DNA of 64,000 bases from Candidatus Poribacteria bacterium (GCA_022827185.1 JAJDTM010000046.1:68644-132643); one strand, 5' to 3'; shown: positions 37,991 to 53,171, counted from the first letter of the stretch. The notes: generated by a model from the sequence alone, not told the origin. Program-made: numbers and translations.

Positions 37991-40900
37991 ATGCCAGCAC
38001 TCCTAATTTTTCAGCACGGGCAGTCCTTGACCTTCGCTATTATCAACCGTAGACCGAGTCAGCGAGACGGGGCCCGCTATGTGCTTGAAAAGATGGTACT
38101 TATCAAGGATATTGACGTTGCCACTCCGCACCGCGCACACCTTGACATCTTGGCAGACCTGTCGCTTGATGCCCTCTATCACCGGCACGAATTCACGAAC
38201 TTCTTGGAGCTCCATCAGGCGTGGCAGCGGACGTTGGACACCTCCGAACTCAACAGACGTTTCTTCAAAGAGATTGCCGATTGGTATTTCTGGGCAGTTG
38301 ATAAGGTGACGTTTCCATCGGATGCAGGCGACGACAAGACTGTTCGTAACGCGACCTGCATCATCCGTTTGATTACACGGCTGATCTTCGTCTGGTTTCT
38401 CAAAGAGAAAAACCTTGTGCCGGACGCGCTTTTTAACGAGGAAGCTATTGCGGAACTGCTCACAAGTCTGGATGCTCAGGAAAGCACCTATTACAAAGCC
38501 GTTCTCCAAAACCTATTTTTTGCAACCTTGAATCAGGAGATGAACACACCTGAAAAACCGAACACCCGCAAGTTCCGAGGGGAGGGCCGGCAGCACTATA
38601 ACATCACTTCGCTCTACCGCTATAAGCGTTATTTCAAGGATCCAGACGCGGCACTGCGGCTGTTTGAGACGGTCCCGTTCCTCAACGGTGGTCTGTTTGA
38701 GTGTCTGGATAAATCCGCACCGGATGATGCGAAAACGATCTTGCGTATAGACGGTTTCTCTGATAGAGACGACAACCCGCTCTATGTGCCAAACGAACTC
38801 TTCTTCTCCGAACCACAGGCGGTCAATCTCAACGCCGTCTATGGCACGAAAAATAGCAGGTATACCGTGCGTGGATTAATCCATATCCTCAACCGCTACA
38901 AATTTACGATTGCAGAGAACACACCGATAGAGGAAGAAGTCGCATTGGATCCCGAATTGCTCGGACAGGTCTTTGAAAACCTGCTTGCGGCGTTCAACCC
39001 CGAAACCGGCACGACTGCGCGTAAACAGACGGGTTCGTTCTATACACCCCGCGAAATCGTCAACTACATGGTGGACGAATCCCTCATCGCTTATCTCAAA
39101 AACACAGTTCGTAGTAGGGCAATTCATTGCCCGTCGGAAACCAAACTCCGTCATCTCCTATCCTACAACGACGAACCCCACCAATTCACCGATACTGAAG
39201 TTGAACATCTCATCAACGCCATAGACACACTGAAGATTCTGGATCCCGCCTGCGGCTCTGGTGCGTTCCCGATGGGCATCCTGCACAAACTCGTCTTCCT
39301 GCTCGGTAAACTTGACCCGCGCAACGCTCAGTGGCGACAACGGCAAATTGACCGCGTCCAAGCTGCCATTGCTACATCAGAGAAGATTGACGATAGCACC
39401 TTCCGTGAAAGTGCTATTGCTGAACTGGAACGCGAAATAGAGAGCATCAACGATGCATTTGAACGCAATGCACTCGACTACGGCAGAAAGCTCTATCTCA
39501 TAGAGAACTGCATCTACGGTGTGGACATCCAACCTATCGCGACACAGATCGCTAAACTCCGGTTTTTTATCTCGCTGATCGTTGAGCAGAAAATTGACGA
39601 TACGCGCGAAAACCGCGGGGTGCGTCCGTTGCCGAATTTGGAGACGAAGTTTGTCGCAGCGAATACGCTCCTCGGTGTAGAGAAACCCGAACAGATGATG
39701 CTTCGCAACCCAGGGATAGACAGCAAAGAGAAGGCATTAGCGGAGGTGCGCCGTCGGCACTTCACTGCGCGAACACCACGCACGAAAGATCGCTACAGAC
39801 AACGCGATGCGGAACTCCGCGCCGAAATCAGCGGATTGCTCAAACGGGACGGGTTTCCGAGTGAGACGACTGAAAAGATTGCTCATTGGGATCCATACAA
39901 CCAGAACGCCTCCGCAGATTTCTTTGACCCAGAATGGATGTTCGGTATTACGGAGGGGTTTGATGTCGTGATTGGCAACCCGCCTTACGTCCGTCAAGAG
40001 AAAATCAAGCATCTCAAACCCACGTTGAAAAAGCACTATACCTGTTACACAGGCGCAGCCGACCTCTACGTCTATTTCTATGAGCGCGGGCTGCAACTGC
40101 TGAGTCCAAGCGGTATCCATACGTTTATCTGTTCTAACAGTTGGCTGGATGTCAACTACGGCGCGCCGTTACAGAAGTATCTCTTAGATAACACAGCGGG
40201 TGCGGTTATCTGCCATAGCGAAGCGGAACGCGAATTTGAGAGTGCCGACATCAACACCATCGTTAGCCTTCTCCAAAACGGCACCCCCGATGCCGATTCT
40301 CACTTCCGCTTTCTCACCTTCAAGACGTTCATCGGCGATCCAGATATAGAAAATCGTCGAGAGCGGACACGCACGTATACCGAGTTGGGACAAGCAGGCA
40401 CGCGGGACAACAGATACACAGGCGACAAATGGGGTGGGAAATACCTCCGCGCCCCGGACATCTACTGGACGATTTTAGAGAAAGGCAAAGATAAACTGGT
40501 ACGCCTCGGTGATGTTGCCGAGGTGAGGCGAGGGTTCACAACCGGTGCAAATGAATTTTTCTATCTTGACGCGGATCGGGTTCAGGAATGGGGTATTGAA
40601 TCGGAATATCTGAGGCACGTTATCAAAAGTCCGCGTGAGTGCAAAAGTATCCGTGTGGATCCGAGTCAGTTGCAGTTCAAGTTGTTTATGTGCCATGCAG
40701 ACAAGGCAGCATTGACAGGCACTGCGGCGTTAGAATACATCAAATGGGGTGAATCGCAAGGGTATCATCAGCGACCGAGTTGTAAAGGACGGGTGCGTTG
40801 GTGGGATTTGGGTGAAGAGTCTGGAAATAGTATTTTTGTTAAAGAAGCAGATGAAACTTCGGCGGTATTTTACAACCCTGACAACTATCTCGTTGATTGC

Positions 40901-41275
40901 CGTCTCTACTATGCGAATCTTTCTAATCACGTCCTTTTGTTCTTAAATTCTGTCATTGGCGCAATGTTCTTTGAGCTATACAGCCGTTCAGGACTTGGCA
41001 AAGGTGCAAGAAGTATGATGGTTTCGGATTATGAGGATGTTCCAACTTTAGAGAATATAAATGTAGATAAGAAAGCGACTGAGTTGGTTTTAAGGCAAAT
41101 TTGCCCTTTGTCTCCCCGAAAATTTGCTAATTCTGAATCTGAGTGGTCTACCCTTGACGCAATCATCTTTGATGCCCTTGATCTCACACAAGGTGAACGG
41201 GATGGTGTGTATGAAGCGGTTGTTAATCTGGTGGAATCTCGGTTGCGGAAGGCGCGGAGTTTGAAGGGGAAATAG
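37991..41275 (+). CDS. Eco57I/MmeI/PglX-like gamma-class N6-adenine DNA methyltransferase with its own C-terminal TaqI_C-type target-recognition region; no recognisable nuclease domain
   Basis: 1094 aa. The N-terminal helical region carries PFLNGGLFE. Motif X is GSFYTPREIV, motif I is LDPACGSGAFPMG, and motif IV is VIGNPPYV. The C-terminal TRD-type region reads VRLGDVAEVRRGFTTGANEFFYL ... RWWDLGEE ... LLFLNSVIGAMFFEL. Confidence 0.75.
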   Translation: MPALLIFQHGQSLTFAIINRRPSQRDGARYVLEKMVLIKDIDVATPHRAHLDILADLSLDALYHRHEFTNFLELHQAWQRTLDTSELNRRFFKEIADWYFWAVDKVTFPSDAGDDKTVRNATCIIRLITRLIFVWFLKEKNLVPDALFNEEAIAELLTSLDAQESTYYKAVLQNLFFATLNQEMNTPEKPNTRKFRGEGRQHYNITSLYRYKRYFKDPDAALRLFETVPFLNGGLFECLDKSAPDDAKTILRIDGFSDRDDNPLYVPNELFFSEPQAVNLNAVYGTKNSRYTVRGLIHILNRYKFTIAENTPIEEEVALDPELLGQVFENLLAAFNPETGTTARKQTGSFYTPREIVNYMVDESLIAYLKNTVRSRAIHCPSETKLRHLLSYNDEPHQFTDTEVEHLINAIDTLKILDPACGSGAFPMGILHKLVFLLGKLDPRNAQWRQRQIDRVQAAIATSEKIDDSTFRESAIAELEREIESINDAFERNALDYGRKLYLIENCIYGVDIQPIATQIAKLRFFISLIVEQKIDDTRENRGVRPLPNLETKFVAANTLLGVEKPEQMMLRNPGIDSKEKALAEVRRRHFTARTPRTKDRYRQRDAELRAEISGLLKRDGFPSETTEKIAHWDPYNQNASADFFDPEWMFGITEGFDVVIGNPPYVRQEKIKHLKPTLKKHYTCYTGAADLYVYFYERGLQLLSPSGIHTFICSNSWLDVNYGAPLQKYLLDNTAGAVICHSEAEREFESADINTIVSLLQNGTPDADSHFRFLTFKTFIGDPDIENRRERTRTYTELGQAGTRDNRYTGDKWGGKYLRAPDIYWTILEKGKDKLVRLGDVAEVRRGFTTGANEFFYLDADRVQEWGIESEYLRHVIKSPRECKSIRVDPSQLQFKLFMCHADKAALTGTAALEYIKWGESQGYHQRPSCKGRVRWWDLGEESGNSIFVKEADETSAVFYNPDNYLVDCRLYYANLSNHVLLFLNSVIGAMFFELYSRSGLGKGARSMMVSDYEDVPTLENINVDKKATELVLRQICPLSPRKFANSESEWSTLDAIIFDALDLTQGERDGVYEAVVNLVESRLRKARSLKGK

Positions 41276-41340
41276 ATTAAATTCAGTTGATATTTGTTCA
41301 CCAGATGTGGTATTATTAACCCAAAAGAGAGGATTAGGTA

Positions 41341-43398
41341 ATGGCGAAAAAAATATCAAAGCGTGTTAAAACACTAAGTGGGTTTATGAAATGGGTGGAA
41401 CAATTCAACGATGGGCAATATCTGTTTCGAGGTGTTTCAAAACACACTCACAAATTGGAAGCATCTGCTTATCGTCGTCTGCCAGAAGCGGAAAGAAATA
41501 ATCAAAATAAACTCCTCAAAATCAATCAGGAGTTGATAGATAAAGCACGTCTTCTGGGGCACGATCAGAAAGATGGACATTACCTTTCTGATTTAGAACT
41601 GTTGGCAGAACTTCAGCACTTTGGTGCTGCTACCTGCTTGATAGATTTCACACGTAGCGCGCAGATCGCACTATGGTTTGCTTGCCAACAGAGTTCGACT
41701 GGAGAAGCAAATGGAAAAGTCTTCGCTGTGCGTTCTGACGATCCCGTACTCTTTAGAACCATTACCCCTAAATTGGTAGTCGAAAAAGACATTGGTTACT
41801 TTTTTGAAGAGGATGAGAGCGGGATATCTCCGCTATATCAATGGCAACCCAAGCAACAGAATAATCGTGTTATCGGCCAGCAATCCATTTTTATATTCGG
41901 TGGATCTCAAATTGAGGTGGCAGCAGAATGTGTAATTCTAAAAAGTAGTAAATCAGAAATTCTGGATTCTTTGGACAACTCTGCAGGTATCACTGAAGCG
42001 AGTATATATCCTGATTTTGACGGTTTCGCGCGTCTACATGCCCAAAATAAGCCATACATTGAACCGAATGTTCAAAGTTATCTGCAACGCGGGACCGAAG
42101 CACACTTAGAAGGCAAGCTTGATGATGCAATTGCCTACTACAGTGAAGTTATATCACTACAGCCAAACACTTCTACGCTAACTATAGCTTACCAAGGTCG
42201 TGGTTTTGCGTACTTTTTCAAACGTGAGTTTGACCCCGCTATTAAAGACTTTACCAAGGCAATAAATTCTAATTCCAAAGATGCCGTAACTTATTACAGT
42301 CGTGGGACAGTCTATAGTCTTACACGCGAATTTGATCTCGCTATCGCTGACTATACTAAAGCTATAGAACTTAATCCTGAGTTTGCTGAAGTCTACGTTC
42401 ATCGTGGTGCTGCTTACATTGACAATAACAAAGTTGATTTGGCCCTCAAGGACTATAACAAAGCGATGGAGCTTAAACCCGATGACCCTGTTACTTATGT
42501 CAGGCAAGGTATTGCTTACGGCAAAAAGGGGGAAATTGACACAGCTATTAAAAATCTTGGTAAGGCAATAGAACTCAATCCAAAATTTGCAGAAGCCTAC
42601 GCTACTCGTGGTGCTGCTTACATTGACAAAAAGGAACTTGATTTGGCTATTAGCGACTGTACGAAGGCGATAGAATTAGACCCAACTGATGCTACAGTAT
42701 ATTGCTACCGCGGTCGTGCTTACAACGAAAAAGGCATTTTTAACGAGGCGATTGATGACTTGACTCAAGCGATAGAACTGGATCCACATCTTGCCGAAGC
42801 TTACCTGAACCGTGGTAATGCCTACGATCATAAGAAAGATTTCAACAAGGCGATTGGTGATTATACTAAAGCGATAGAACTGGATCCAGATGACACTGAC
42901 TTCTACTGCTATCGCGGTTTTGCTTACCAACGCAAAGGTGATCTCAATTTGGCAATTGATGACTTTACCGAAGCGATAAAGAGAAATCCGAACTTTGCTG
43001 AAGCTTATCTGGATCGTGGATGTATTTATGGAGAAATAAGAGATTTTGACAAGGCGATTAATGATTTCACCAAATTGGTACAACTCAGACCTGATGATAG
43101 CAGAGCATACACTGCTCGCGGTGTTACTTACCGCAGGAAAGGTAATTTTAACTTAGCGATTAATGACTTTAGTAGAGGAATAAAAGTAGATCCAGATGAT
43201 GCTAAAGCTTATTACCACCGGGCCGATCTACGATTACACTTAAGGGAATTCAAAAAAGCCAAATCAGACCTAACAACTGCCAGAGACATGGGGGTAAATA
43301 TTATCGCTGCATTCCATAATAGCTACGAAAGCATTGAAGATTTTGAGCAGAAAACCGATATTCAGTTACCAGAAGACATCGCCGCGCTCTTGACCTAG
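41341..43398 (+). CDS. FRG-domain protein fused to ~13 TPR repeats and a conserved C-terminal module
   Basis: An N-terminal FRG motif (QYLFRGVSKHTHKLEASAYRR) and 34-aa TPR units (..A..Y..A..LDP..A.AY..RG.AY...). The C-terminal ARDMGVNIIAAFHNSYESIEDFEQKTDIQLPEDIAALL is shared with three neighbouring TPR proteins. Confidence 0.65.
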   Translation: MAKKISKRVKTLSGFMKWVEQFNDGQYLFRGVSKHTHKLEASAYRRLPEAERNNQNKLLKINQELIDKARLLGHDQKDGHYLSDLELLAELQHFGAATCLIDFTRSAQIALWFACQQSSTGEANGKVFAVRSDDPVLFRTITPKLVVEKDIGYFFEEDESGISPLYQWQPKQQNNRVIGQQSIFIFGGSQIEVAAECVILKSSKSEILDSLDNSAGITEASIYPDFDGFARLHAQNKPYIEPNVQSYLQRGTEAHLEGKLDDAIAYYSEVISLQPNTSTLTIAYQGRGFAYFFKREFDPAIKDFTKAINSNSKDAVTYYSRGTVYSLTREFDLAIADYTKAIELNPEFAEVYVHRGAAYIDNNKVDLALKDYNKAMELKPDDPVTYVRQGIAYGKKGEIDTAIKNLGKAIELNPKFAEAYATRGAAYIDKKELDLAISDCTKAIELDPTDATVYCYRGRAYNEKGIFNEAIDDLTQAIELDPHLAEAYLNRGNAYDHKKDFNKAIGDYTKAIELDPDDTDFYCYRGFAYQRKGDLNLAIDDFTEAIKRNPNFAEAYLDRGCIYGEIRDFDKAINDFTKLVQLRPDDSRAYTARGVTYRRKGNFNLAINDFSRGIKVDPDDAKAYYHRADLRLHLREFKKAKSDLTTARDMGVNIIAAFHNSYESIEDFEQKTDIQLPEDIAALLT

Positions 43399-43416
43399 CC
43401 AACGGACGAAAAAGAT

Positions 43417-43697
43417 CAACAAACCAAGAGTTTTCGCAGACTTCCACAACGCAGATGCAAAAGGCAGGGGTCCGATTGAACTGTGCCGGACAGCGGCGGA
43501 CCTTGAACGTCAGAAAATTATGCTGCGAAATGGATAGGCTCTTATTATCTATAGTGAAGAGTTGGAGGTTGAACGCATTGTTTGCTACTCCGAAAAAGAA
43601 AAGTTGTGGACAGGGGTGATTGATTGGGATGCCATTCAAGAGATAAAACCTGTCCCCTCTCAAATAACTCCGCAAATCCGTGACATAGCGCGGTAAT
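43417..43697 (+). pseudogene. Degenerate copy of the small protein gene found intact at 50794..51078 (no start codon, in-frame TAG)
   Basis: Nucleotide homology to 50806-51078 is ~90%, but ...CTGCGAAATGGATAGGCT has a TAG where the intact copy has CAG (Q), and there is no in-frame ATG. Confidence 0.45.
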
Positions 43698-43926
43698 GTG
43701 ATATACGCCTACACCTGATGAGATGGCTTCTTTTCAACTAATGCCTTAAGCATAGCATCGGGACGCGGTATTGTCTCATCGCGGATTGCACAGATTTCGC
43801 AGATTTTTTGAATCTGTATCATCTAGCATTATAGGTGACCGGTATGAAATCCGCGTCATCCGTACTATCTGTGCAAATCCGAGATTCAGACGATTGCGAG
43901 ATTTCATCCTCAAAGAAATTGGGATT

Positions 43927-46581
43927 ATGGAGAAAAAGCCGGTGAGTAAACCGTTAAAAGTGTTTATTACCTATTCACATAAAAATACAGCAGAAAAGGA
44001 CGAATTGATAACACGTCTTGCCCTTCTCAAACGTGAAGGCATAATAAGCATTTGGCATGACAACGAAATTCTGCCAGGTGACAAGTGGCGTGATGCTATC
44101 TTCAGCAATCTTGCGGATTCCGACCTTCTGCTCTATCTTACCTCTGCTGATAGCCTTGAATCTGAAAACTGTAATAAAGAATTAGCAGCGGCGTTAAACA
44201 CAGAGATAAGGGTGATTCCAATTATCCTTGAGCATTGTGATTGGCAAAACTATCAACTTAGTGACTTCCAAGCTCTTCCTGACAGAGGTAATCCTATTGA
44301 CGAATGGCAACCTGAGAGTAAAGGGTGGCAAAATGTAGTGGATGGTGTCCGAAAAGTTGTTGAAAGGCAGTCTGAGAATTGGTTTTCTGAAACCTTTGAG
44401 AAAGAACTTCGTGCTGAATCAGAGTTCCACCGTGGGAATGTTCAACAGCTGCTTGGGCAGCTAGAAATGGCAATAGAAGCCTATTCACAGTCCATTGACC
44501 TTAAACCTCGTGTTGCTAGTTCTTATAACAATCGCGGTGCTGCTTACCAGAAAAAAGGAAATTTTGATCGCGCCATTGAAGATTTTAACATGGCAATTGA
44601 ACTGAAAAACAACTATAGCCAAGCTTATTACAATCGTGGGCTCACTTACGACGAAAACGGTGAAATTGAAAAAGCCCTTGAAAACTATAATAAAGCGATA
44701 AAACTCAAACCTGATTATGCTGAAGCATATAGCAATCGAGGCAATATTTATAAGAAAGAAAGCAAGTTTGATAGAGCTGTCGCAGACTATAACATAGCGA
44801 TAAAACTCAGACCAGACCTTGCCGAGGTTCATTACAATCGCAGTGTAATTTACGAAAATGAAGGCGATTATGATAGGGCCATCCAAGATTGTAACACAGC
44901 GATAAAACTCAAACCCGATTTTCCCGAAGCGTATAACAATCGCGGTAACGCTTACATAGGAAAAGGTGAATTTGGCAATGCTATCGTGGATTATAATACG
45001 GCGATAAAACTCAAACCCGATTTTCCCGAAGCGTATTACAGCCGTGGTACTACTTATGGTATAACTGGCGATTCTAATAGCGCAATTAAAGACTTTGACA
45101 AAGCGATAAAACTCAAACCTGATTTTCCCGAGGCATACAGTAATCGCGGTAACGCTTACGTCTTTGAAGGCAAGTTGGAAAACGCTCTCAAAGACTACAC
45201 TGAAGCAATACAACTTAAACACGACTATGTTGATGCTTACTGTAATCGCGGAGCAGTTTATGGCATAACAGGCAATTATGACAGGGCAATCAAAGATTAT
45301 ACCGAAGCGATAAAACTCAATCCACACCATGCCAACGCCTATAATAATCGTGGAATGGCTTGGTTACACCTGCAAGAGTGGGATAGAGCCAAAACCGACT
45401 TCACAACTGCTAAACAGTTAGGCGTTGACATCATTGCAATGTTCCATAATTCCTACAAGGATGTTGAGACGTATCAAAAGAATCGGCTCGTCAAATTGCC
45501 GGAGGACCTTGCACTGCTGCTGACGCAACGCAGGCGGGATCGCTATCCGAAGCTGCAGAAAGTGTTGGATGCTGACGGCAATCCGCTGGAATTGCCGGAC
45601 GTGGTGAATTTACGCGAGCAGCTACGCAATGCTGGTCCCCAGCTAAGCGAGTACATCAATGCGAAGTCTGCCTTCGGTATTAATACGACCCCAACCGAGG
45701 TATTTGTGGTAGACAAAACGACACGGGATGAACTCATTGGGGCACATCCCGCATCTGCTGATATTTTGAAGCCGTTTTTGCACGGACAGGATATCAGACG
45801 TTGGTACGTTGATACACCGCAGCACTGGTTAATTTTTACCCACCGCGGTATAGCAATAGACGACTACCCGGCAATTTTGAAGTATTTGGAGAGTCATAAG
45901 GAGAGCCTACAGAAAAGAAAGGGTAAACAAGCATGGTACGAGTTACCGGCGTCTCTTGACCATGCGGAACGTTTTGCACAACCGAAACTGGTTTGTCCAA
46001 ACACCTATAACCATCACACTTTTGCGGTTGATACAGAGAGTTTTTATTACGGGAATACGTCTTACCTTATCCCAACCGAGGAAAAATGGCTTTGTGGGCT
46101 TCTCAATTCCCGGACTGTAGAGTGGTTCTATTCACAGGTGTCGAACCAATTGACGATTGATCCGCTTCGGGCGCGCAGCGGGTATATCCAACAGATTCCG
46201 ATTCCCGACATCACGCCAGTTCACAAAGCACTCATTGCTAAAATCGTTGACTACCTGATCTCTCTGCAGCAGCAACCGGAGATAAACAGCAAAGATTTGA
46301 AGTACGCCCGCGACCATGTGATGCTTGGATACTTTGAGCGCGTTATTGATGGATTGATTTATGAGGCTTACCTACCTGCGGAACTTCATAAGAGCGATAA
46401 AGTCTTCTTGCAACCGTTATTGGACGAAGGGTTGCCACTCATTGAAGAGATTCAGGGCAATAAAATGACTGCTTTCCGGGACATCTTTGAGCGGCTATAT
46501 GACAGGATGCATCTTGTCCGACGCCACCTTTATTATCTGGATGTTATAAAACCTATCCGCATTATTCAGGGGAAACTGTGA
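43927..46581 (+). CDS. TIR-domain protein fused to TPR array, the shared post-TPR module, and a C-terminal TaqI_C/Eco57I-C-like DNA target-recognition domain
   Basis: The TIR reads KVFITYSHKNTAEKDELITRL...ISIWHDNEILPGDKW...SENCNKEL. About nine TPR units follow. The shared module is AKQLGVDIIAMFHNSYKDVETYQKNRLVKLPEDLALLL. The C-terminus has GINTTPTEVFVV...GQDIRRWYV...HWLIFTHRG..YPAILKYLESHKESLQKRK..QAWYELP...KLVCPNTYNHHTFAVD..YY.NTSYLIP...LCGLLNSRTVEWFY...IQQIPIPD. I trimmed the start to ATG at 43927 (MEKKPVSKPLKVFITYSHKN). Confidence 0.65.
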   Translation: MEKKPVSKPLKVFITYSHKNTAEKDELITRLALLKREGIISIWHDNEILPGDKWRDAIFSNLADSDLLLYLTSADSLESENCNKELAAALNTEIRVIPIILEHCDWQNYQLSDFQALPDRGNPIDEWQPESKGWQNVVDGVRKVVERQSENWFSETFEKELRAESEFHRGNVQQLLGQLEMAIEAYSQSIDLKPRVASSYNNRGAAYQKKGNFDRAIEDFNMAIELKNNYSQAYYNRGLTYDENGEIEKALENYNKAIKLKPDYAEAYSNRGNIYKKESKFDRAVADYNIAIKLRPDLAEVHYNRSVIYENEGDYDRAIQDCNTAIKLKPDFPEAYNNRGNAYIGKGEFGNAIVDYNTAIKLKPDFPEAYYSRGTTYGITGDSNSAIKDFDKAIKLKPDFPEAYSNRGNAYVFEGKLENALKDYTEAIQLKHDYVDAYCNRGAVYGITGNYDRAIKDYTEAIKLNPHHANAYNNRGMAWLHLQEWDRAKTDFTTAKQLGVDIIAMFHNSYKDVETYQKNRLVKLPEDLALLLTQRRRDRYPKLQKVLDADGNPLELPDVVNLREQLRNAGPQLSEYINAKSAFGINTTPTEVFVVDKTTRDELIGAHPASADILKPFLHGQDIRRWYVDTPQHWLIFTHRGIAIDDYPAILKYLESHKESLQKRKGKQAWYELPASLDHAERFAQPKLVCPNTYNHHTFAVDTESFYYGNTSYLIPTEEKWLCGLLNSRTVEWFYSQVSNQLTIDPLRARSGYIQQIPIPDITPVHKALIAKIVDYLISLQQQPEINSKDLKYARDHVMLGYFERVIDGLIYEAYLPAELHKSDKVFLQPLLDEGLPLIEEIQGNKMTAFRDIFERLYDRMHLVRRHLYYLDVIKPIRIIQGKL

Positions 46582-48017
46582 AAATAACCAATATTAAGAT
46601 TAAAAATTTCAGAGCTTTTCCGCAAATCTATCACATCAATCTTCATAATGCGGGGAAGAACTTACTTGTTTATGGAGAAAATGGGAGCGGAAAATCGTCA
46701 CTGTATCTCGCCCTAAAGTATTTTCTTGAATCCGGTGTGCCCGAAAATAGCGAGGATGACAGGAACCGGGCGTTTGAAACCCATCAAAATATCTTTACCG
46801 AGGATCTTGGTCATATCAAACTTCATTTCCGTTCAGAGCCTCAACGAGAGAAAGATACCTATGAGTGGTCAAGAGATGTTAAACAGACAACTGACGAGCT
46901 GATTATTGAAACGTCAAAGGCGAAAGGCTTTCTGGACTACAAGGTGCTATTGGAAACACACTATCTTCATCGTGAAAACGATATTGTGAATTTGTTCGAT
47001 CTGTTGGTTGAAGTGCTGCTGGCAAACACTATCAACCCCAGGACAGATAGACCTCTCACAGCGGACTGGAACGCCATTCAGCCTCCGTTTCCTCGCAGAG
47101 GTGCAAAACACCAAATTGCGGACCTGGAAAGACAGATAGTCAACTTCAACAGGGAGTTAGCAAACAGGTTAGCAGAATTAAGTCCGAAGGTGTCCGAAAT
47201 TCTCAACAAGTTTGGATACAAAGTCGCGCTTGACTTTGATTTTCAAGGCGTTACGTACAACCAGGGTGAGAAAACGCTTGATAACCGAGAGATTCTCTTA
47301 AAAGTTGAATTTTTTGATACAGATATACCTTCACATCACCGATTCCTGAACGAGGCAAAGCTGTCAGCAATTGCGATTGCTATCTATCTTTCGTCAATCT
47401 TGTGCTTGCCAGAACCAAAAGAAGGCATGAAAATTCTTGCGCTTGACGATGTGCTGATAGGTTTGGATATGTCAAACCGTCTGCCGGTTCTTGACATTCT
47501 GAACGAGTACTTCTCAGATTACCAAATCTTCTTGACGACTTACGATAAGGCGTGGTATGAGATTGCTAAACAACGGACAGACCAAAAAGACTGGAAATAT
47601 GCTGAATTCTATTTCTCCCAAACCGATGAGTATGAAATTCCGGTCTATGCAGAAGATAAGGCATACCTTGAAAAGGCGCGGGAATATCTTGATTTGAATG
47701 ACTACAAAGCCTGTGCAATTTACGTCCGAACCGCTTTTGAAGCGGTAATCAAACGATACTGTGAGAAAAGGAATCTTGCCATTAAGTATCGTGAAAATCC
47801 GAAAGACTTGAGAAGTGAAGATTTTTGGGTACCGATAAAAATGGAAATGGACGAAGCGGGCGACCTCCTTTTAGATCTAAGAGTTGTTGACAAAATTGAA
47901 TTGGCACGAAAATTTATCCTAAATGAACTCAGTCATGATACCTTCGTGAATATCTACAGAAAGGAACTTGAGGATGCAATTGACGCGGTTGCGGAACTTG
48001 AAGCTGCTTTAGCATAG
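46578..48017 (+). CDS. SMC/RecF-like ABC ATPase (AAA_15/AAA_21-type), translationally coupled to the TIR gene
   Basis: A GTG start overlaps the TIR-gene TGA (GTGA). The N-terminus reads IKIKNFRAF..., Walker A is GENGSGKSS, the D-loop/Walker B is ILALDDVLIGLD, and the signature/His region reads QIFLTTYD. Confidence 0.7.
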   Translation: MKITNIKIKNFRAFPQIYHINLHNAGKNLLVYGENGSGKSSLYLALKYFLESGVPENSEDDRNRAFETHQNIFTEDLGHIKLHFRSEPQREKDTYEWSRDVKQTTDELIIETSKAKGFLDYKVLLETHYLHRENDIVNLFDLLVEVLLANTINPRTDRPLTADWNAIQPPFPRRGAKHQIADLERQIVNFNRELANRLAELSPKVSEILNKFGYKVALDFDFQGVTYNQGEKTLDNREILLKVEFFDTDIPSHHRFLNEAKLSAIAIAIYLSSILCLPEPKEGMKILALDDVLIGLDMSNRLPVLDILNEYFSDYQIFLTTYDKAWYEIAKQRTDQKDWKYAEFYFSQTDEYEIPVYAEDKAYLEKAREYLDLNDYKACAIYVRTAFEAVIKRYCEKRNLAIKYRENPKDLRSEDFWVPIKMEMDEAGDLLLDLRVVDKIELARKFILNELSHDTFVNIYRKELEDAIDAVAELEAALA

Positions 48018-48044
48018 AGCTAAGCCGCGCTAAGATAATTCATA

Positions 48045-48266
48045 ATGATTCAGAATAATCAAGAACTTGAAACAACGTTGGAACGCATTGAACGCTTTCA
48101 AAAGATAGTTGAGAAACTCAAAGCGTCTGAAACAAATCCACGGAATTATGAGTTATCCACGGGCGGTTTCCTTGCGGAAATCGACCGGATGAAACTGGAA
48201 GTGAGAAAGTATCTATCCATTCATTCGAGCGAATTGATAGAACAAATTGCTGAAGGCAGTACCTAA
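48045..48266 (+). CDS. Small coiled-coil protein of unknown function
   Basis: A 73-aa ORF between the ATPase and the next TPR gene with no clear SD. It may be a real small adaptor or may be spurious. Confidence 0.3.
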   Translation: MIQNNQELETTLERIERFQKIVEKLKASETNPRNYELSTGGFLAEIDRMKLEVRKYLSIHSSELIEQIAEGST

Positions 48267-48337
48267 AAATAAGCAAAATCAATCCGCGTCATCCGTGAAA
48301 TCCGCGAAAATTCGCGATTTGCGGCGTACTCGCCCAA

Positions 48338-49663
48338 ATGCGACCTGCATTCAGACAAGCAAAAAGTCAAATTCCTCAAGTCACTTGCATCTTGGAGAAA
48401 AACATGGGAAAAAAACACAGTCAAAAACGCGCCGAGATGTATTACAAGCACGGGTTCGCTCAAAGGAAAAAAGCGGATTATGAGCGTGCTATTGTAGACT
48501 TTACCAAAGCGATAGAACACAATCCAGAAGATGTCTTTGCCTATACGAATCGGGGTGTAGTTTATTACAACAAGGGTAAGTTTTACCGTGCAGTCGATGA
48601 CTTTAGCAAAGTCATAAGCCTCACACCTGATGATGCATTTGCCTACTATGGCCGCGGGATGGCTTACCGCAATCTGCTGATTTTTGAGAAAGCCATCCAA
48701 GACTTTAGCACGGCGATACGTCTTAAACCCGATACGGCTGCTGATGCCTATACCGAGCGCGGTGTAACTTATCACACCAAAGGTGATGTAGACCATGAAG
48801 GTGATGTAGACCATGCTATTGAAGACTATAATGCTGCGATAGCACTGGATCCAGCGTTTGCACAGGCTTGGACGGCGCGCGGTAAAGCTTATCGTGATAA
48901 AGGCGAGATTGACAAGGCAATTGAAAATTACAACAAGGCGATTGAACTCAACCCAGAACTCGCTGAGCCTTATACCTACCGCGGTCTTATCTACACCGAA
49001 CAAGGCGCGGTAGACAAAGCGATTGAAGATCATAGCAAAGCGATCACGTGCAACCCAGAGTTTGCCGAAGCGTACGTTAATCGAGGGCAGGCTTACTACG
49101 CCAAAAACGAATTGGACCAGGCGATAGCAGATTATGACAAAGCCATAGAGATCGATTCAGAACTTGTGGAGGCATACACGTATCGGGGCAACGCGTATCG
49201 CGCTAAAGTCGAGTTAGACAGCGCAATTGCGGATTATACCGAGGCACTAAAACTCAGACCAAAGATTGCTGAATTCTATTACACACGGGGTGAGGCTTGG
49301 TTGCTTGCGAAAGGTTGGGAAGAGGCGAAGACCGACTTGACAGCTGCGCTCCTACAAGACATGGATGTCGCCGCTGCGTTTCACAATATCCACGGGAGCA
49401 TTGCTGCCTTTGAGGAGAAGATAGGGAGTCGTTTGCCGAGAGAGATTGTAGTATTATTGACACCGCGGAGCGAACCGTTTGAAATTGATAAAGATGCGCG
49501 GATCGCGTTGGGAATGAAGTATTATGGAAACGACGAACTCAGCAGTGGACTCGCAGCGCGCCTTGCAGGTGTCCCACGCGAAGATTTCTGGTACCTAATG
49601 GGGGATTACGGTCTCTCTCTCCTTACCCTTGATGAAGAAGAGCACGCCAAGAGCGGATTTTAA
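48338..49663 (+). CDS. TPR-repeat protein with shared post-TPR module and C-terminal UPF0175-type antitoxin domain
   Basis: TPR units are followed by AAFHNIHGSIAAFEEKIGSRLPREIVVLL. The C-terminal ALGMKYYGNDELSSGLAARLAGVPREDFWYLMGDYGLSL matches the UPF0175 antitoxin fold pattern. An alternative start is ATG at 48404. Confidence 0.6.
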   Translation: MRPAFRQAKSQIPQVTCILEKNMGKKHSQKRAEMYYKHGFAQRKKADYERAIVDFTKAIEHNPEDVFAYTNRGVVYYNKGKFYRAVDDFSKVISLTPDDAFAYYGRGMAYRNLLIFEKAIQDFSTAIRLKPDTAADAYTERGVTYHTKGDVDHEGDVDHAIEDYNAAIALDPAFAQAWTARGKAYRDKGEIDKAIENYNKAIELNPELAEPYTYRGLIYTEQGAVDKAIEDHSKAITCNPEFAEAYVNRGQAYYAKNELDQAIADYDKAIEIDSELVEAYTYRGNAYRAKVELDSAIADYTEALKLRPKIAEFYYTRGEAWLLAKGWEEAKTDLTAALLQDMDVAAAFHNIHGSIAAFEEKIGSRLPREIVVLLTPRSEPFEIDKDARIALGMKYYGNDELSSGLAARLAGVPREDFWYLMGDYGLSLLTLDEEEHAKSGF

Positions 49664-49666
49664 AGA

Positions 49667-50158
49667 ATGCCGATACAACCAGTTGTTAGCAATAACAGTC
49701 CGCTTGTGGGACTTTTGGGGATCAATCTGCTTTCTCTGTTGCGAGATCTTTATACAGAGGTATGGATTCCACGAAAAGTTGAAAAGGAGTTTCTCAGAAA
49801 GGATCCGATAGTCCGCCGGGAGGCACTCGAAAATGCTCCCTGGATTAAAACTGTTGATTTAACGGATCCGCGAACCGCTGCGGTTCATGCGGAACTTGAT
49901 GAGGGTGAAGCCGAGGCATTGGCTCTTGCTAATGAACATGACGCTCGTCTCGTTCTTCTTGATGAAAAGAAAGGAAGACAGAAAGCCAAGCAAATTGGAT
50001 TAACGGCTATGGGGATAGTAGGCGTTTTGCAAGAGGCGAAGGAAGAAGGCTTGATTGATGCCATCAAGCCGCTTTTAATTCGGTTGCAGGATAACGGAAT
50101 CCACCTGAGCGAATCGCTCATCAATAACGCCCTACAAGACGCAGGTGAGGCAGATTAG
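49667..50158 (+). CDS. DUF3368-type PIN-domain protein (toxin partner of UPF0175)
   Basis: The conserved acidic residues of the DUF3368/PIN fold are present (VVSNNSPLVGLLGI..., ...DEGEAEALALA..., LVLLDEKKGRQKA). It starts 3 nt after the TPR-UPF0175 stop. Confidence 0.65.
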   Translation: MPIQPVVSNNSPLVGLLGINLLSLLRDLYTEVWIPRKVEKEFLRKDPIVRREALENAPWIKTVDLTDPRTAAVHAELDEGEAEALALANEHDARLVLLDEKKGRQKAKQIGLTAMGIVGVLQEAKEEGLIDAIKPLLIRLQDNGIHLSESLINNALQDAGEAD

Positions 50159-50397
50159 CAGGCGGGTTTACAACGCACACTCACGTTGTATGGAAGTGAC
50201 AGAATAAATTAATTGCTACCAGATATTGCCGAAATGTTGACGTAGTAGTAGGAGCAAAGCCTAATCCACCGCTTCAAAACCGCTGCCAGTTTCAAGTAGG
50301 AGAGCATTCTGTCTGCACGATTTATCCCAGCAATCCTTTAATCCTGATTCAGACAATATTATACATACCGCTCTGCTGGAGGAGAAGGAAAAACGAC

Positions 50398-50790
50398 CAT
50401 AGTTGTCAATTTAGGGATCCGCCAGGTCCGGTAGGTTCGGTTTCCCAACCGAACCGGACTGCCCCAAGACCGGCGGATGCTTTCTCTCAAGGGATGTGTC
50501 GGTTGAGTTTGTGTGTATAACCCGGGGCAGTTAGGAAACTACACCATAGGTGTCAATTTAGGGTTTTTTCACGGCATTTGGGAATGGTTAATAAACATGC
50601 CGCCCTTACAGGGCTTGGTTTTTGCTTGAACATGCTGCTATAAACATATCGTCCCTCCGGGACTAAAGAGGGTTATGAAGTCTTCAAGGTTTTCGCGTCG
50701 TATCCGGTTCGGTTAGTAAACCGAACCTACCGGGTCCGGGGCTGAGGTGGTTATTTTTTTAAAATTGACACTTATGGGTCAGAAGAAAAA
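50398..50790. repeat. Repeat-rich intergenic block: family-C palindromes (50423-50465 and 50704-50741, mutually inverted), 21-bp direct repeats ACCATAG(T/G)TGTCAATTTAGGG (50398-50418, 50543-50563) and an inverted partial copy (50765-50780)
   Basis: Read directly from the sequence. It separates the two TPR-UPF0175/PIN modules. Confidence 0.6.
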
Positions 50791-50793
50791 ACG

Positions 50794-51078
50794 ATGATGA
50801 ATAAACCAAGAGTTTTCACAGACTTCCACAACGCGGATGCAAAAGGTAGGGTCCGATTGAATTGTGCTGAAACTGCGGCGGACCTTGAACGTCAGAAAAT
50901 TATGCTGCGAAATGGACAGGTTCTTATTATCTATAGCGAAGAGTTAGAGGTTGAAGGCATTGTTTGCTACTCCGAAGAGGAAAAGTTGTGGACAGCGGTA
51001 ATTGATTGGAATGCTATTCAAGAGATAGAACCTGTCGCCTCCCAAATAACTCCGCAAATCCGTGACATAGCGGGGTAA
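50794..51078 (+). CDS. Small conserved hypothetical protein (94 aa); intact copy of the pseudogene at 43417..43697
   Basis: The ORF is MMNKPRVFTDFHNADAKGRVRLNCAETAADLERQKIMLRNGQVLIIYSEELEVEGIVCYSEEEKLWTAVIDW... Both copies immediately precede a TPR-module gene. Confidence 0.4.
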   Translation: MMNKPRVFTDFHNADAKGRVRLNCAETAADLERQKIMLRNGQVLIIYSEELEVEGIVCYSEEEKLWTAVIDWNAIQEIEPVASQITPQIRDIAG

Positions 51079-51133
51079 TGTGATATACTTCTACACTACC
51101 TTTGAGAAACCTGCCTTGTGAAGGAGAGAACTG

Positions 51134-52543
51134 ATGCAAGAACTGATCCAGGGTTCTGTGGATACTTATTACAACAGCGATTTTGCCGAGGTGAAAAGAG
51201 AAGACGACGCAGCAAGACATAACACCCAAGGCATCGCTTATAGTAAAAACGGTGAGCACGCACGCGCAATCGCAGCCTTCAACAAGGCGGTAAAACTGGA
51301 TCTACATTTTGCCGAGGCTTATTACAATCGCGGATGCGCTTATGACGGCAAAGGCGATTATGAAAAAGCAATTGAAGACTATTGCGCAGCGATCAAGCAC
51401 AATCCCAATTTTGCTGAGGCATACAACAACCGCCGTAACACATATAAGAAAAAAGGCACCGCATATAAAACCTACGGAGATTATAGTATAGCGATAAAGT
51501 TGGCTCCACAACTGACTGAGGCATATTACAATCGAGGGACCGACTCTCTCAAAGAAGGTTCCTATAACGATGCGATTAGAGATTATGACACGGCAATAGA
51601 ACGCCAGCCAAAGTTTCCGCAATTTTATAATGCTCGCGGTGTCGCTTACGAAAATGACAGCGAGATTTTGGCTGTGCTTTCACGCTATAAGGTAGCAGTA
51701 GGGCTGGAGGCGAGAGTCCCTAAAGTCCGTATATCTTACGGAGAGGAATACTACAGTGAAGCGGAACTCCGTGCTGCTATTGAAGACTATAGCACAGCGA
51801 TCGATTTGAAACCGAATTATGCCGAGGCGTATTTCAATCGTGGGAGAGCACACTTCAAAAAAGGTGAGAGTGATGCCGCTATCAAAGACTATAGTACAGC
51901 AATCGCTTTGAAATCAGATTACGCCGAGGCGTATCTCAACCTTGGTGTGGCTTATGACAGCAGAGATGAGTTTGACGCTGCACTCGAAAACTATAATATA
52001 TCCGTATCCCTCGCCTCTGATCTCCCGATTGCTTACAGTCATCGAGGTGCTGCTTCCCTCCGTAAAGGTAAAGTAAAATCAGCGATTGAAGACTATAACA
52101 CAGTCCTATCTCTCAATCCCGATTACACAGCGGTGTATTACAAGCGCGGGATAGCATGGTTATATGTGAGAGAGTGGGAGAAAGCGAAAACCGACCTGAT
52201 TGCCGCCAAAGATAGAGGTATGGCTATCATGCAGACGTTCCATGACGATTACAGAAACGTGGTAACGTTTGAACAGAAAACGGGTGTTCATTTACCTGAA
52301 GACATAACGGGATTGCTAATTCCACAAAAAGGGCTTGCCGAACTGGAAAAGGAAACTCGGCTGGCGTTGGCATTGAAATATTATAAAAGCGGCGCGATCA
52401 GTACCGGACTCGCTGCGCAATTGGTAGGTATATCCCGCGAAGCGTTCTGGTATCTTATGGGGGATTACGGGCTCTCTCTGTTTGAGCTAACTGAAGATCT
52501 ACTTGCGGAGCTCGATAATGCCTCCAAGACCAATTATCAGTAA
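51134..52543 (+). CDS. TPR-repeat protein with shared post-TPR module and C-terminal UPF0175-type antitoxin domain (second copy)
   Basis: A good RBS (GAAGGAGAG) precedes the start. The module reads TFHDDYRNVVTFEQKTGVHLPEDITGLL and the C-terminus reads ALALKYYKSGAISTGLAAQLVGISREAFWYLMGDYGLSL. Confidence 0.6.
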   Translation: MQELIQGSVDTYYNSDFAEVKREDDAARHNTQGIAYSKNGEHARAIAAFNKAVKLDLHFAEAYYNRGCAYDGKGDYEKAIEDYCAAIKHNPNFAEAYNNRRNTYKKKGTAYKTYGDYSIAIKLAPQLTEAYYNRGTDSLKEGSYNDAIRDYDTAIERQPKFPQFYNARGVAYENDSEILAVLSRYKVAVGLEARVPKVRISYGEEYYSEAELRAAIEDYSTAIDLKPNYAEAYFNRGRAHFKKGESDAAIKDYSTAIALKSDYAEAYLNLGVAYDSRDEFDAALENYNISVSLASDLPIAYSHRGAASLRKGKVKSAIEDYNTVLSLNPDYTAVYYKRGIAWLYVREWEKAKTDLIAAKDRGMAIMQTFHDDYRNVVTFEQKTGVHLPEDITGLLIPQKGLAELEKETRLALALKYYKSGAISTGLAAQLVGISREAFWYLMGDYGLSLFELTEDLLAELDNASKTNYQ

Positions 52544-53015
52544 TAATAGTCCGCTCGTTGCACTTTTAGGACTTGACCTTCTTTCTTTATTACGCGAACT
52601 TTACACTGAGGTATGGATTCCTGAAGAGGTCAAAGCGGAGTTTCTTGGGGTAGAAAGAATGCACCGCCTGCAGGCACTTAACGATGCTCCATGGATTAAA
52701 ACCGTTCATTTGACAGATGTAACGGACGTATCAACTTATGTGAGAAGCGGACTTGATCTTGGTGAAGCCGCCGTATTCGCGCTTGCCAAAGAACACGATG
52801 CTCAATTTGTCATTATTGATGAACTCAAGGCGCGACAGCATGCTGCGAGAATCGGATTATCTTTTAAAGGCACGCTTGGCATTTTGCTTGAGGCGAAGGA
52901 AGAAGGCTTGATTGATGCCATCAAGCCGCTTTTAATTCGGTTGCAGGATAACGGAATCCACCTGAGCGAATCGCTCATCAATAATGCCCTACAGGACGCG
53001 GGTGAGGTGGATTAA
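52518..53015 (+). CDS. DUF3368-type PIN-domain protein (second copy)
   Basis: It is paralogous to 49667..50158; the C-terminal 60 aa are nearly identical. I trimmed the start to ATG at 52518 (MPPRPIISNNSPLVALLG), which overlaps the upstream TPR gene end. Confidence 0.65.
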   Translation: MPPRPIISNNSPLVALLGLDLLSLLRELYTEVWIPEEVKAEFLGVERMHRLQALNDAPWIKTVHLTDVTDVSTYVRSGLDLGEAAVFALAKEHDAQFVIIDELKARQHAARIGLSFKGTLGILLEAKEEGLIDAIKPLLIRLQDNGIHLSESLINNALQDAGEVD

Positions 53016-53171
53016 CGGGCATGTTTACACAATCCTATAAATCTTGATTTAGAACAATAGAATATGCAATATGCCGCGGTTGTAGACCCACGTTATCGTT
53101 GGCAATTTAAGGTGACTTGAAAAGAAAGGTATGCTATACTTAGGCAAAATTTTATTGATGGAGTTTATTTT

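Follow-up and report, generated by a model that had tools for sequence, protein, structure and literature searches.

The UPF0175-DUF3368 pair, catalogued by PADLOC as the defence candidate PDC-S70 and corresponding to COG2886-COG2405, is a known type II toxin-antitoxin (TA) pairing (PMC5499597, PMC2701414), whose canonical UPF0175 antitoxins comprise ~80-100 aa. One PDC-S70 representative reduced the plating of phages T4, T5 and T7 on E. coli 100-1000-fold (preprint, bioRxiv 10.1101/2024.09.26.614923). VapBC systems, whose toxins belong to the PIN family PF01850, are organized as bicistronic operons and feature an antitoxin with a DNA-binding-type domain and a flexible acidic C-terminal tail. 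Sensor-coupled or extended antitoxins include fused CapRel, the PanA/Panacea antitoxins and the chaperone-addicted TAC antitoxins; in these, an extra domain sets the timing of toxin release, and one accessory domain can be combined with several TA types. Variable C-terminal TPR arrays behind an N-terminal effector (TIR, FRG) are found in STAND/NLR-type receptors such as Avs and bNACHT and in the TPR-containing conflict systems of multicellular bacteria reportedly described by Kaur et al. in 2020.

Here, we analyzed a window of 64,000 nucleotides from Candidatus Poribacteria (JAJDTM010000046.1:68644-132643; positions are counted from its first letter), which contains two tandem modules, each composed of a TPR protein ending in a complete UPF0175 antitoxin domain and a gene for a DUF3368/COG2405 PIN. 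The open frame at 48338-49663 showed seven to eight TPR matches and UPF0175 (PF03683) at aa 377-436 (43.7 bits, E 2.2e-11), while the frame at 51134-52543 showed TPRs and UPF0175 at aa 400-460 (55.3 bits, E 5.5e-15; Pfam cut-off 27.9 bits). The frames downstream, 49667-50158 and 52503-53015, matched DUF3368 (PF11848) with 51.3 and 60.2 bits, respectively (cut-off 27.3 bits). In addition, an HMM of 84 nodes built from 16 stand-alone UPF0175 proteins aligned with both tails at E ~1e-24, covering nodes 4-77 in module 1 (E 8e-24) and 4-82 in module 2 (E 4e-24), and both PINs gave full-length PADLOC matches to PDC-S70 (PIN1 E 1.2e-44, PIN2 E 1e-43). The UPF0175 tail on a TPR protein followed by a DUF3368 PIN, proposed in a first-pass annotation together with the known TA pairing, is thus upheld by Pfam, PADLOC and the stand-alone HMM, and the similarity to UPF0175 passed the profile search by which that annotation wanted it checked.

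The two copies of the module, already recognized in that annotation, are diverged paralogues: PIN1 and PIN2 share 67% identity and the TPR proteins ~40%. The 3' 125 nt of PIN2 are nearly identical to PIN1. In both, the UPF0175-bearing gene (419 and 469 aa, respectively) lies directly upstream of the PIN gene on the same strand, giving a bicistronic arrangement with the antitoxin first and tight junctions, namely a 3-nt gap in module 1 and a 26-nt overlap in module 2. A promoter scan gave no signal above chance. The gene order, the tight coupling and the two domains are those of the described UPF0175-DUF3368 pair, and the whole stand-alone antitoxin sequence is contained in the fusion.

The frame of module 1 is indeed open from 48338, as first annotated, but the likeliest gene start is the ATG at 48404, which has a GGAG 9 nt upstream and yields a protein of 419 aa (48404..49663, + strand), as in the gene call of an identical contig (L001). 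Its TPR array comprises ~9 helix pairs and ~300 aa in the AF2 model, rather than the ~400 aa estimated initially. It is followed by a conserved element, referred to here as the cap (49286-49465), and by the UPF0175 domain (49418-49645), which shares the cap's final 15 aa; beyond it, the protein ends in an acidic tail predicted to be disordered (pLDDT 89.7 overall, below 50 for the final 14 residues). The predicted toxin PIN1 (49667..50158, + strand, 163 aa) starts just beyond the scaffold gene's stop codon, as read from the junction sequence, and matches Pfam DUF3368 at E 1e-13. Its AF2 model (pLDDT 94.4) retrieved VapC/PIN structures as the top Foldseek matches (VapC4 5h4g, 1y82, 1v96 and 2mdt), with a probability of 1.00 both for 5h4g (TM 0.63-0.72) and for the COG2405 structure 2mdt (TM 0.73 normalized to the target). 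By its model, the toxin has a PIN fold like that of VapBC toxins. It differs from VapBC systems in its PIN family, in an antitoxin of another fold family (HTH UPF0175) and in a first catalytic Asp that has not been conserved.

The scaffold-antitoxin gene of module 2 (51134..52543, + strand, 469 aa) encodes a TPR array, a cap (52145-52324) and a complete UPF0175 domain (52277-52516), which is also matched by the PADLOC PDC-S70 antitoxin models PDLC05075/6. PIN2 (52518..53015, + strand, 165 aa, Pfam E 1.8e-16) most likely starts at the ATG at 52518, inside the scaffold gene. In the otherwise collinear strain L002, PIN2 is missing (window 52509-53030 is gone) and an orphan scaffold-antitoxin is left. 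This dispensability of PIN2 in a close strain counts against the reading we favor below. Just upstream of module 2, a conserved ORF of 94 aa (orf94, 50794..51078, + strand; gene calls in L001-L003 give it 93 aa) may be part of the same unit. It has no match in Pfam, PADLOC or NCBIfam, and a frameshifted copy, at 43414-43714, precedes the TIR gene described below.

In Candidatus Poribacteria, a TPR-cap-UPF0175 gene of 308-1346 aa ends at the start of the PIN gene in 23/23 loci, covering every poribacterial locus of the genome collection with readable upstream sequence, and no PIN lacking a fused antitoxin was found among them. Apparent short, unfused poribacterial antitoxins were rejected as broken genes on low-coverage contigs. 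In contrast, the closest non-poribacterial relatives, forming a sister clade, carry a stand-alone antitoxin of 93 aa (3/3 loci checked), which agrees with the earlier view that this antitoxin is normally a small separate protein. Median dN/dS values across 19 loci (last three TPRs, 0.16; cap, 0.18; UPF0175, 0.14; PIN, 0.22) show that the last TPRs, the linker, the antitoxin and the PIN are all under purifying selection. Since the PIN follows the fusion in every such poribacterial locus and all these parts are constrained, the fusion of the antitoxin to the TPR scaffold is no accident. Across species, PIN1-type proteins remain paired with tail-1-type and PIN2-type proteins with tail-2-type antitoxins. 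The distribution is TA-like: the PIN is not found without antitoxin, whereas a scaffold-antitoxin without its PIN exists. Our preferred interpretation, to which we assign a probability of roughly 55%, is that the modules represent a variant, specific to this lineage, of the UPF0175(COG2886)-DUF3368(COG2405 PIN) pair, acting as a TA-type abortive-infection module in which a scaffold-tethered antitoxin would hold the PIN and the TPRs would provide the input.

The setting of both modules is a defence island of this sponge symbiont, a hotspot of variation flanked by PhyH and ThuA. A type IIG restriction-modification enzyme (37991..41275, + strand, 1094 aa; PADLOC REase_MTase_IIG, E 7e-78) marks the left edge of the variable region; strain L002 keeps only a 146-bp 3' remnant of its gene. 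It is followed by a paralogous scaffold (41341..43398, + strand, 685 aa) with an FRG head (PADLOC PDC-S15, E 1e-30), a predicted NADase effector (PMC9503650), TPRs and a cap. This protein stops exactly after the cap and the UPF0175 N-terminal element (...IQLPEDIAALLT*), which aligned with nodes 3-17 of the UPF0175 HMM. The next gene (43924..46581, + strand, 885 aa) encodes a TIR-TPR-cap-TaqI_C protein, identified by Pfam TIR_2 and TaqI_C and by cap alignment, in which a TaqI-like DNA target-recognition domain replaces the antitoxin HTH; this architecture is kept in P0311, a cluster of 50 members, and in L032. Its gene overlaps by 4 nt with that of an SMC/ABC-type ATPase (46578..48017, + strand, 479 aa; Pfam AAA_23/SMC_N, PADLOC LmuB/mad3/AriA/PtuA-like). 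As in Thoeris, the TIR heads of this scaffold (E 1e-29, PADLOC) and of orthologous fusions match ThsB models; however, TIR is fused here to TPR-cap and TaqI_C or UPF0175, and no ThsA-like partner (SIR2 or Macro with SLOG) was detected among the genes scanned at 37991-53015.

The cap, a conserved element of 60 aa, joins the TPRs to the tail and ends in 15 residues that make up the N-terminal element of UPF0175. It is common to four proteins of the window, namely the FRG-TPR protein, the TIR-TPR-TaqI_C protein and the two TPR-UPF0175 fusions. Around it, the scaffolds are highly modular: the head is absent or consists of TIR, two TIR or FRG domains, the number of TPRs ranges from ~8 to 30, a 3-4-fold spread without loss of the module, and the tail is UPF0175, one of two unrelated short tails followed by classical PIN genes, TaqI_C, or none. 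TPR arrays with TIR or FRG heads were found in the neighbours within the window and in L007, L012, L014 and L032. In other species, such a head and the UPF0175 tail reside on the same polypeptide, as in L012 (restriction-modification genes, FRG-TPR-cap-UPF0175 and PIN) and L007 (restriction-modification genes, TIR-TIR-TPR-cap-UPF0175 and PIN). Among the more divergent fused loci (L032, L033, L037 and L038), L037 and L038 link the scaffold to VapBC-like systems, as TPR-cap is joined to the two other short tails with a true PF01850 PIN gene immediately downstream of each. Unfused cap proteins, in turn, adjoin DUF433-type TA pairs. The link to the adjacent TIR system, suggested by the first-pass annotation as a possible shared trigger, therefore turned out stronger than proposed, given the common cap, the single polypeptides found elsewhere and the TIR-TPR-TaqI_C and ATPase gene pair, which recurs beside the module, in another gene order, in L026 and L032. 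Defence-island location and rapid change of repeat number are also features of STAND/NLR-type receptors; unlike Avs and bNACHT, however, the four scaffolds are without a central NTPase (no NTPase family was among their Pfam matches), the ATPase encoded at 46578-48017, of SMC/ABC type, is a protein of its own, and the cap and antitoxin behind the TPRs would tether a second, separately encoded effector.

This shared architecture could also reflect an assembly platform, in which UPF0175 serves mainly as a docking adaptor rather than a releasable inhibitor, and the PIN is activated inside a multi-effector complex. Cap proteins would then join via TPR, cap and UPF0175 N-terminal element into a complex of NADases, PIN nuclease, DNA-recognition domain and ATPase. 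The occurrence of the cap and the 15-aa element in four proteins of one island, the recurrence of the TIR-TPR-TaqI_C and ATPase pair by the module in varied order, and the presence of two to three TPR-cap units per chain in P0267 and P0271 all fit this idea. Furthermore, 34/65 cap proteins end right after the UPF0175 N-terminal element, which is therefore conserved on its own. However, in many loci one headless module is all that lies between PhyH and ThuA (as in L019) or a TIR/FRG partner is missing within 6 kb; the module can thus stand alone. For the cap, no structural homologue is known beyond its first 24 aa, which are TPR-like. Altogether, we consider a platform of this kind doubtful.

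The variability of the arrays leads to another explanation, in which the pair is an ordinary selfish addiction module stabilizing the variable island, and the TPR fusion, lacking any role in sensing, arose as a tolerated by-product when abundant TPR genes recombined. TPR arrays do recombine, as seen from a strain-to-strain breakpoint at window position 48470, within the first TPR, from 102-nt periodic repeats of 60-78% identity and from the highly variable copy number, and TPR genes are unusually abundant in Poribacteria (PMC3909097). Nevertheless, a by-product would be hard to reconcile with a fusion fixed in all 23 loci without any intact unfused form, with last TPRs and cap as constrained as the antitoxin, with the same scaffold fused to three unrelated antitoxin-like tails, or with heads that are dedicated immune effectors, and we regard this explanation as unlikely.

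A further point concerns the PIN itself. The first catalytic Asp is replaced by Asn (N9) in 117/120 poribacterial and 113/120 sister-clade sequences (230/240 in total). The replacement is a trait of the whole PIN branch, independent of the fusion and common to the nearest canonical clade. The fourth acidic residue that is usually present is not apparent, and COG2405 proteins display two to five active-site residues, i.e. variable conservation, according to Matelska et al. For these reasons, nuclease activity of the PIN is uncertain. Because of the Asn, found in ~96% of both clades, the DUF3368 protein might be no toxin but a partner that binds RNA or protein, and the pair would then be a regulatory one, an HTH transcription factor with its co-factor on a TPR scaffold, which would match the variable active site of the family and the loss of PIN2 from a strain that kept its scaffold. 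However, E81, E90 and D99 are invariant and D78, E83, E100 and R104 nearly so, and Asp is found at position 9 in 9/240 sequences, which means that this position tolerates it. Considering also the phage protection by another PDC-S70 representative, and a gene order and toxin-never-alone pattern that match a TA, a non-nuclease role appears very unlikely. Finally, a function of these proteins as 'eukaryote-like' TPR proteins in sponge-host manipulation with TA genes as unrelated neighbours, the usual reading of TPR proteins in sponge symbionts (PMC3909097), is hardly credible for an antitoxin in the same reading frame as the TPRs and conserved together with them, charged N-termini without a signal-peptide-like hydrophobic stretch, and neighbours that are all defence genes.

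Under the favored reading as a TA-type abortive-infection module, the complete antitoxin forms the C-terminal ~80 residues of a cytoplasmic scaffold made of the variable TPR array and the cap. The PIN gene is translationally coupled to the scaffold gene, and both proteins would be made together. The PIN nuclease might be kept inactive on the UPF0175 domain and the acidic tail, and the TPR array might regulate it by receiving the input, although the 3-4-fold variation in TPR number could equally point to an array that is loosely constrained away from the junction. If a protein derived from phage or stress were bound, or if the scaffold were lost or re-assembled, the PIN might be freed or activated, leading to growth arrest or abortive infection. 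In the TIR- or FRG-headed orthologues, a single input would act through one scaffold on two effectors, an NAD-consuming one and the PIN. Recombination within and between the TPR arrays of adjacent paralogues reshuffles heads, repeat number and tails, as indicated by the breakpoint inside the first TPR and by the FRG and double TIR heads of L012 and L007. An extra antitoxin domain governing toxin release is the idea common to CapRel, PanA and TAC; their sequences are, however, unrelated, and the extra part is here a long TPR solenoid with a new cap, N-terminal to the antitoxin and shared with NADase-headed proteins. An antitoxin that is always carried on a variable TPR scaffold, which elsewhere bears TIR or FRG killing domains, suggests that these modules of Candidatus Poribacteria represent a hitherto undescribed, sensor-coupled toxin system.

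The region under study, from Candidatus Poribacteria, carries two gene pairs on one strand, each consisting of a scaffold-antitoxin gene and a DUF3368 PIN gene. Pfam detected seven to eight TPR matches and a C-terminal UPF0175 domain (E 2.2e-11) in the first scaffold-antitoxin ORF (48338-49663, +), and TPRs with a C-terminal UPF0175 domain (E 5.5e-15) in the second (51134-52543, +). The two DUF3368 ORFs, each downstream of a scaffold ORF, matched with E values of 1e-13 and 2e-16, and all TPR, UPF0175 and DUF3368 matches exceeded the curated Pfam cut-offs. Gene 1 most likely starts at the ATG at 48404, with a GGAG 9 nt upstream, as also called in L001, a public contig of identical sequence; 3 nt separate its stop from the PIN1 start, and the PIN2 gene (ATG at 52518) overlaps gene 2 by 26 nt. 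The domains and junctions therefore confirm the first-pass annotation, which had described UPF0175 as the C-terminal tail of a TPR protein, followed by a DUF3368 PIN, in a module present twice. The module layout stands as claimed, with small corrections of the exact coordinates at the starts of gene 1 and PIN2.

PIN1 and PIN2 are 67% identical and the two scaffolds about 40%, and the modules are old paralogues. The final 125 nt of both PIN genes are near-identical, suggesting a likely gene conversion at their 3' ends; this is not proven, because the peptide encoded there is also highly conserved in other species. Rfam returned no match within 47900-53300, and a promoter scan did not exceed shuffled expectation. 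Candidate terminators at 50048 and 52905 were rejected as an 8-bp palindrome within the PIN coding sequence. This palindrome, GGCTTGATTGATGCCATCAAGCC (8-bp stem; 50048-50070 in PIN1 and 52905-52927 in PIN2), encodes GLIDAIKP, and most species retain it; the related locus L010 shows a compensatory double change, the only one seen, and there are several breaks. Since the peptide GLIDxIKP is conserved, it mostly explains the conservation of the palindrome across species; the palindrome is probably incidental, a mere consequence of the peptide, but it might also act as an element in DNA or RNA.

The tail of protein 2 matches the antitoxin models of PDC-S70, the PADLOC candidate defence system for the UPF0175 (COG2886) and DUF3368 (COG2405) pair. 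An HMM made from 16 stand-alone members of UPF0175 matches the fused tails, its alignment beginning at node 3-4, and the fusions therefore hold a complete antitoxin. HMM nodes 3-18 correspond to KTGIQLPEDIAAMLT, the final 15 residues of a conserved 60-aa linker between TPR array and tail, which we call the cap. A profile-profile comparison of the cap with stand-alone antitoxins recovered the same register (P 0.008), the 15-aa motif by itself not being statistically strong. Pfam found nothing in the cap, and the cap profile matched only TPR motifs (RPAP3 and others), over the first 24 residues. Proteins with the cap only end, or change to another domain, directly past this UPF0175 N-terminal element. 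Most simply, all four TPR genes of the island would descend from a TPR-UPF0175 ancestor, its HTH part having been lost or replaced. The AlphaFold model of protein 1 (pLDDT 89.7) contains nine helix pairs of TPR type, a cap confidently modelled as helical, a UPF0175 core of three helices (pLDDT about 76) and a disordered acidic tail at the C-terminus. Disordered acidic tails are common for the toxin-binding ends of antitoxins. The module is most likely an abortive-infection system of the toxin-antitoxin type, in which a predicted toxic PIN would be held and neutralised by the scaffold-tethered antitoxin, with the TPR array as the sensing input.

The cap follows the last TPR in all four island TPR proteins, including FRG-TPR (41341-43398), whose C-terminus lies exactly at ...IQLPEDIAALLT, and TIR-TPR-TaqI_C (43924-46581). 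When cap plus UPF0175 served as the query against 1.84 billion representative proteins, only 101 matches emerged, in three classes: cap plus UPF0175; proteins whose extreme C-terminus is the cap itself (34 of the 65 with a cap), among them some that contain two or three TPR-cap units internally; and ordinary antitoxins of 80-110 aa. The FRG-headed metagenome proteins P0267 and P0271 carry two or three TPR-cap units per chain, so the cap is also found internally. Most fusions are headless, with TPRs directly at the start; heads comprise two TIR domains in locus L007, one TIR in locus L014 and database protein P0261, and FRG, a domain of the ART superfamily and a predicted NADase effector (PMC9503650), in locus L012. 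In such headed orthologues, the same scaffold would also control an NADase. A less likely rival model takes the scaffold as an assembly platform. The tails vary as well: database proteins P0342 and P0294 bear two unrelated short tails, each with a classical PF01850 PIN gene directly after, at the loci L037 (TPR-cap gene at 4001-5253) and L038 (4001-5160), one of these tails ending in ...HYLYGHPKVT. A scan of JGI metagenomes with a narrow cap alignment gave 11 loci, and unfused cap proteins there adjoin DUF433-type TA pairs.

The TIR-TPR-cap-TaqI_C gene overlaps a gene for an SMC/ABC-type ATPase (46578-48017) by 4 nt. Database protein P0311 (a 50-member cluster) and locus L032 have the same architecture and the same SMC-type ATPase partner, and the pair recurs in L026 and L032. 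It is probably also present in L038, where the TPR-cap/PIN genes are followed downstream by a TIR-TPR gene and an SMC-type ATPase. With its TIR head, DNA target-recognition domain and LmuB/AriA-like ATPase, the pair resembles a defence system that has yet to be described. A comparison of TaqI_C with the target-recognition domain of the type IIG enzyme next to it, of which it might have been a copy, gave no significant similarity (BLASTP E 0.4).

Scanning species-representative genomes recovered 27 loci from Poribacteria and a single Anaerolineales locus. Upstream sequence was readable at 23 poribacterial genome-collection loci; in every one of them the gene reaching the PIN start ends in TPR-cap-UPF0175 (308 to 1346 aa), and none has the PIN without the fusion. 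The Anaerolineales locus and two further sister-clade loci encode a 93-aa stand-alone antitoxin with a 4-nt overlap with the PIN. Short cap-UPF0175 proteins (P0121, P0122, P0127 and others) looked like unfused forms but were rejected as artefacts, because they come from long-read assemblies at 4x coverage in which many genes are broken and PINs, too, are split. The metagenome protein P0252 (184 aa) continues from its UPF0175 tail into the PIN (…EEELVNSRTLRMPTQIVISNNSPL…), owing either to a sequencing error or to a natural single-chain variant of scaffold, antitoxin and PIN. Across 19 loci, median dN/dS was 0.16 for the last three TPRs, 0.18 for the cap, 0.14 for UPF0175 and 0.22 for the PIN. 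In addition, tail type co-segregates with PIN type, and the close strain L002 (PIN1 100% identical) has kept the second scaffold-antitoxin while PIN2 is absent. These patterns fit a toxin-antitoxin relationship, with selection maintaining the fusion. A less likely rival model is a mere addiction module with a neutral fusion.

Both PINs match PDC-S70 end to end (E 1e-44), and the best PDB structural matches of the PIN1 AlphaFold model (pLDDT 94.4) are VapC/PIN structures, including the COG2405 structure 2mdt. Sequence searches of the PDB found nothing with the PIN and only chance-level matches with the UPF0175 tail, and scanning viral contigs with the PIN alignment revealed no relatives. The UPF0175-DUF3368 pair is almost unstudied in the literature. 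DUF3368/COG2405 has been classed in the VapC group, as a PIN-like family whose members are potential toxins, and UPF0175 occurs only alongside DUF3368 (Matelska et al., PMC5499597); COG2886 was predicted to be a small HTH antitoxin (Makarova et al., PMC2701414). According to a preprint (bioRxiv 10.1101/2024.09.26.614923), E. coli carrying a PDC-S70 representative was protected against T4, T5 and T7, and PDC-S70 is reported among the commonest candidate defence systems, especially in archaea. The residues E81, E90 and D99 are invariant in the PIN. At the position of the first catalytic Asp, 117 of 120 close homologues carry Asn, as do 113 of 120 members of the nearest canonical clade, so this residue characterises the branch rather than the fusion. 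PIN activity cannot be assumed, and a further, unlikely rival model accordingly sees a non-nuclease regulatory pair.

The segment between PhyH/aspartate-kinase-like genes and ThuA, which flank the island, is a variable hotspot: the same site has differing contents between strains and species (L002, L019, L025 and L026, compared with 37991-53030 here). The neighbours of the module are all defence-type genes. Least likely among the rival models is that of host-interaction TPR proteins. L002 keeps only a 146-bp remnant of the 3' end of the type IIG RM gene (37991-41275); from there to a breakpoint at 48470, inside the first TPR of gene 1, the window has an extra segment with the type IIG RM, FRG-TPR, TIR-TPR-TaqI_C, the ATPase and a 73-aa ORF. 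In L012 and L007, the RM gene is directly followed by an FRG- or TIR-headed fusion, a layout that TPR-array recombination in a window-like arrangement would produce. Tandem module duplication recurs in L022 and L033/L034.

An exact 16-nt motif, AATCCGCGTCATCCGT, lies in the 5' leader of the TIR gene (43848-43863) and in that of gene 1 (48281-48296), with 0.02 matches expected by chance; it also occurs at 18181-18196 on the minus strand with two mismatches. Both leaders and first codons look homologous by eye, with the motif copies left unaligned by MAFFT, and this suggests that gene 1 derives from a TIR-headed gene that lost its head. A conserved 94-aa ORF lacking a family match (50794-51078) lies just upstream of module 2; a frameshifted, start-less copy, about 90% identical, is found upstream of the TIR gene (43414-43714), and partial copies precede scaffold genes in L009 and L027. 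The 73-aa helical ORF after the ATPase gene (48045-48266), also present in L009 and L027, has no family match. Long antisense ORFs within TPR-coding regions (44485-45330, -, 281 aa; 48263-49033, -, 256 aa) most likely arise as artefacts from the repetitive codon pattern of the TPRs rather than being genes. A pair of large paralogous proteins, each about 1000 aa, is encoded at 54240-57263 (-) and 60189-63182 (-). The former combines an ECF sigma-factor N-terminus with BNR/beta-propeller-like repeats, an unusual fusion, and the L002 counterpart of the latter has a similar architecture.

The module agrees with the UPF0175-DUF3368 family in profile, fold and gene order, but its antitoxin is not small and stand-alone. 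It differs from STAND/NLR proteins in that the scaffold proteins have no NTPase and from Thoeris in that the genes scanned (37991-53015) include no ThsA, and we found no description of TPR-fused UPF0175 or of the cap in the literature. As far as sequence comparison goes, the architectural novelty is clear and well supported; the mechanism is testable, and function in this uncultured lineage is predicted. A broader reading, to which we give about one chance in five, is that TPR-cap is an unrecognised, NTPase-less immune scaffold of sponge symbionts through which PIN TA pairs and TIR/FRG NADases become a combinatorial receptor family. One variable TPR sensor would then govern both a covalent head effector and a PIN tethered non-covalently via the antitoxin tail, the common 15-aa UPF0175 N-terminal element would pair the cap proteins of one island, and recombination between TPR arrays would generate new head-tail combinations. 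The natural variants (headless, TIR-headed, FRG-headed, orphan antitoxin and alternative tails) offer a ready-made experimental design. The module itself would offer a natural case in which an antitoxin is hard-wired to a large repeat sensor, and so bears on how chromosomal TA systems are triggered, a question still open. It ties TA modules, by descent and architecture, to TIR/FRG immune effectors that share one scaffold, possibly a counterpart of NLR-type receptors that needs no NTPase, and part of the 'eukaryote-like' TPR expansion of sponge symbionts could be re-read as anti-phage or conflict machinery rather than as host-manipulation factors.
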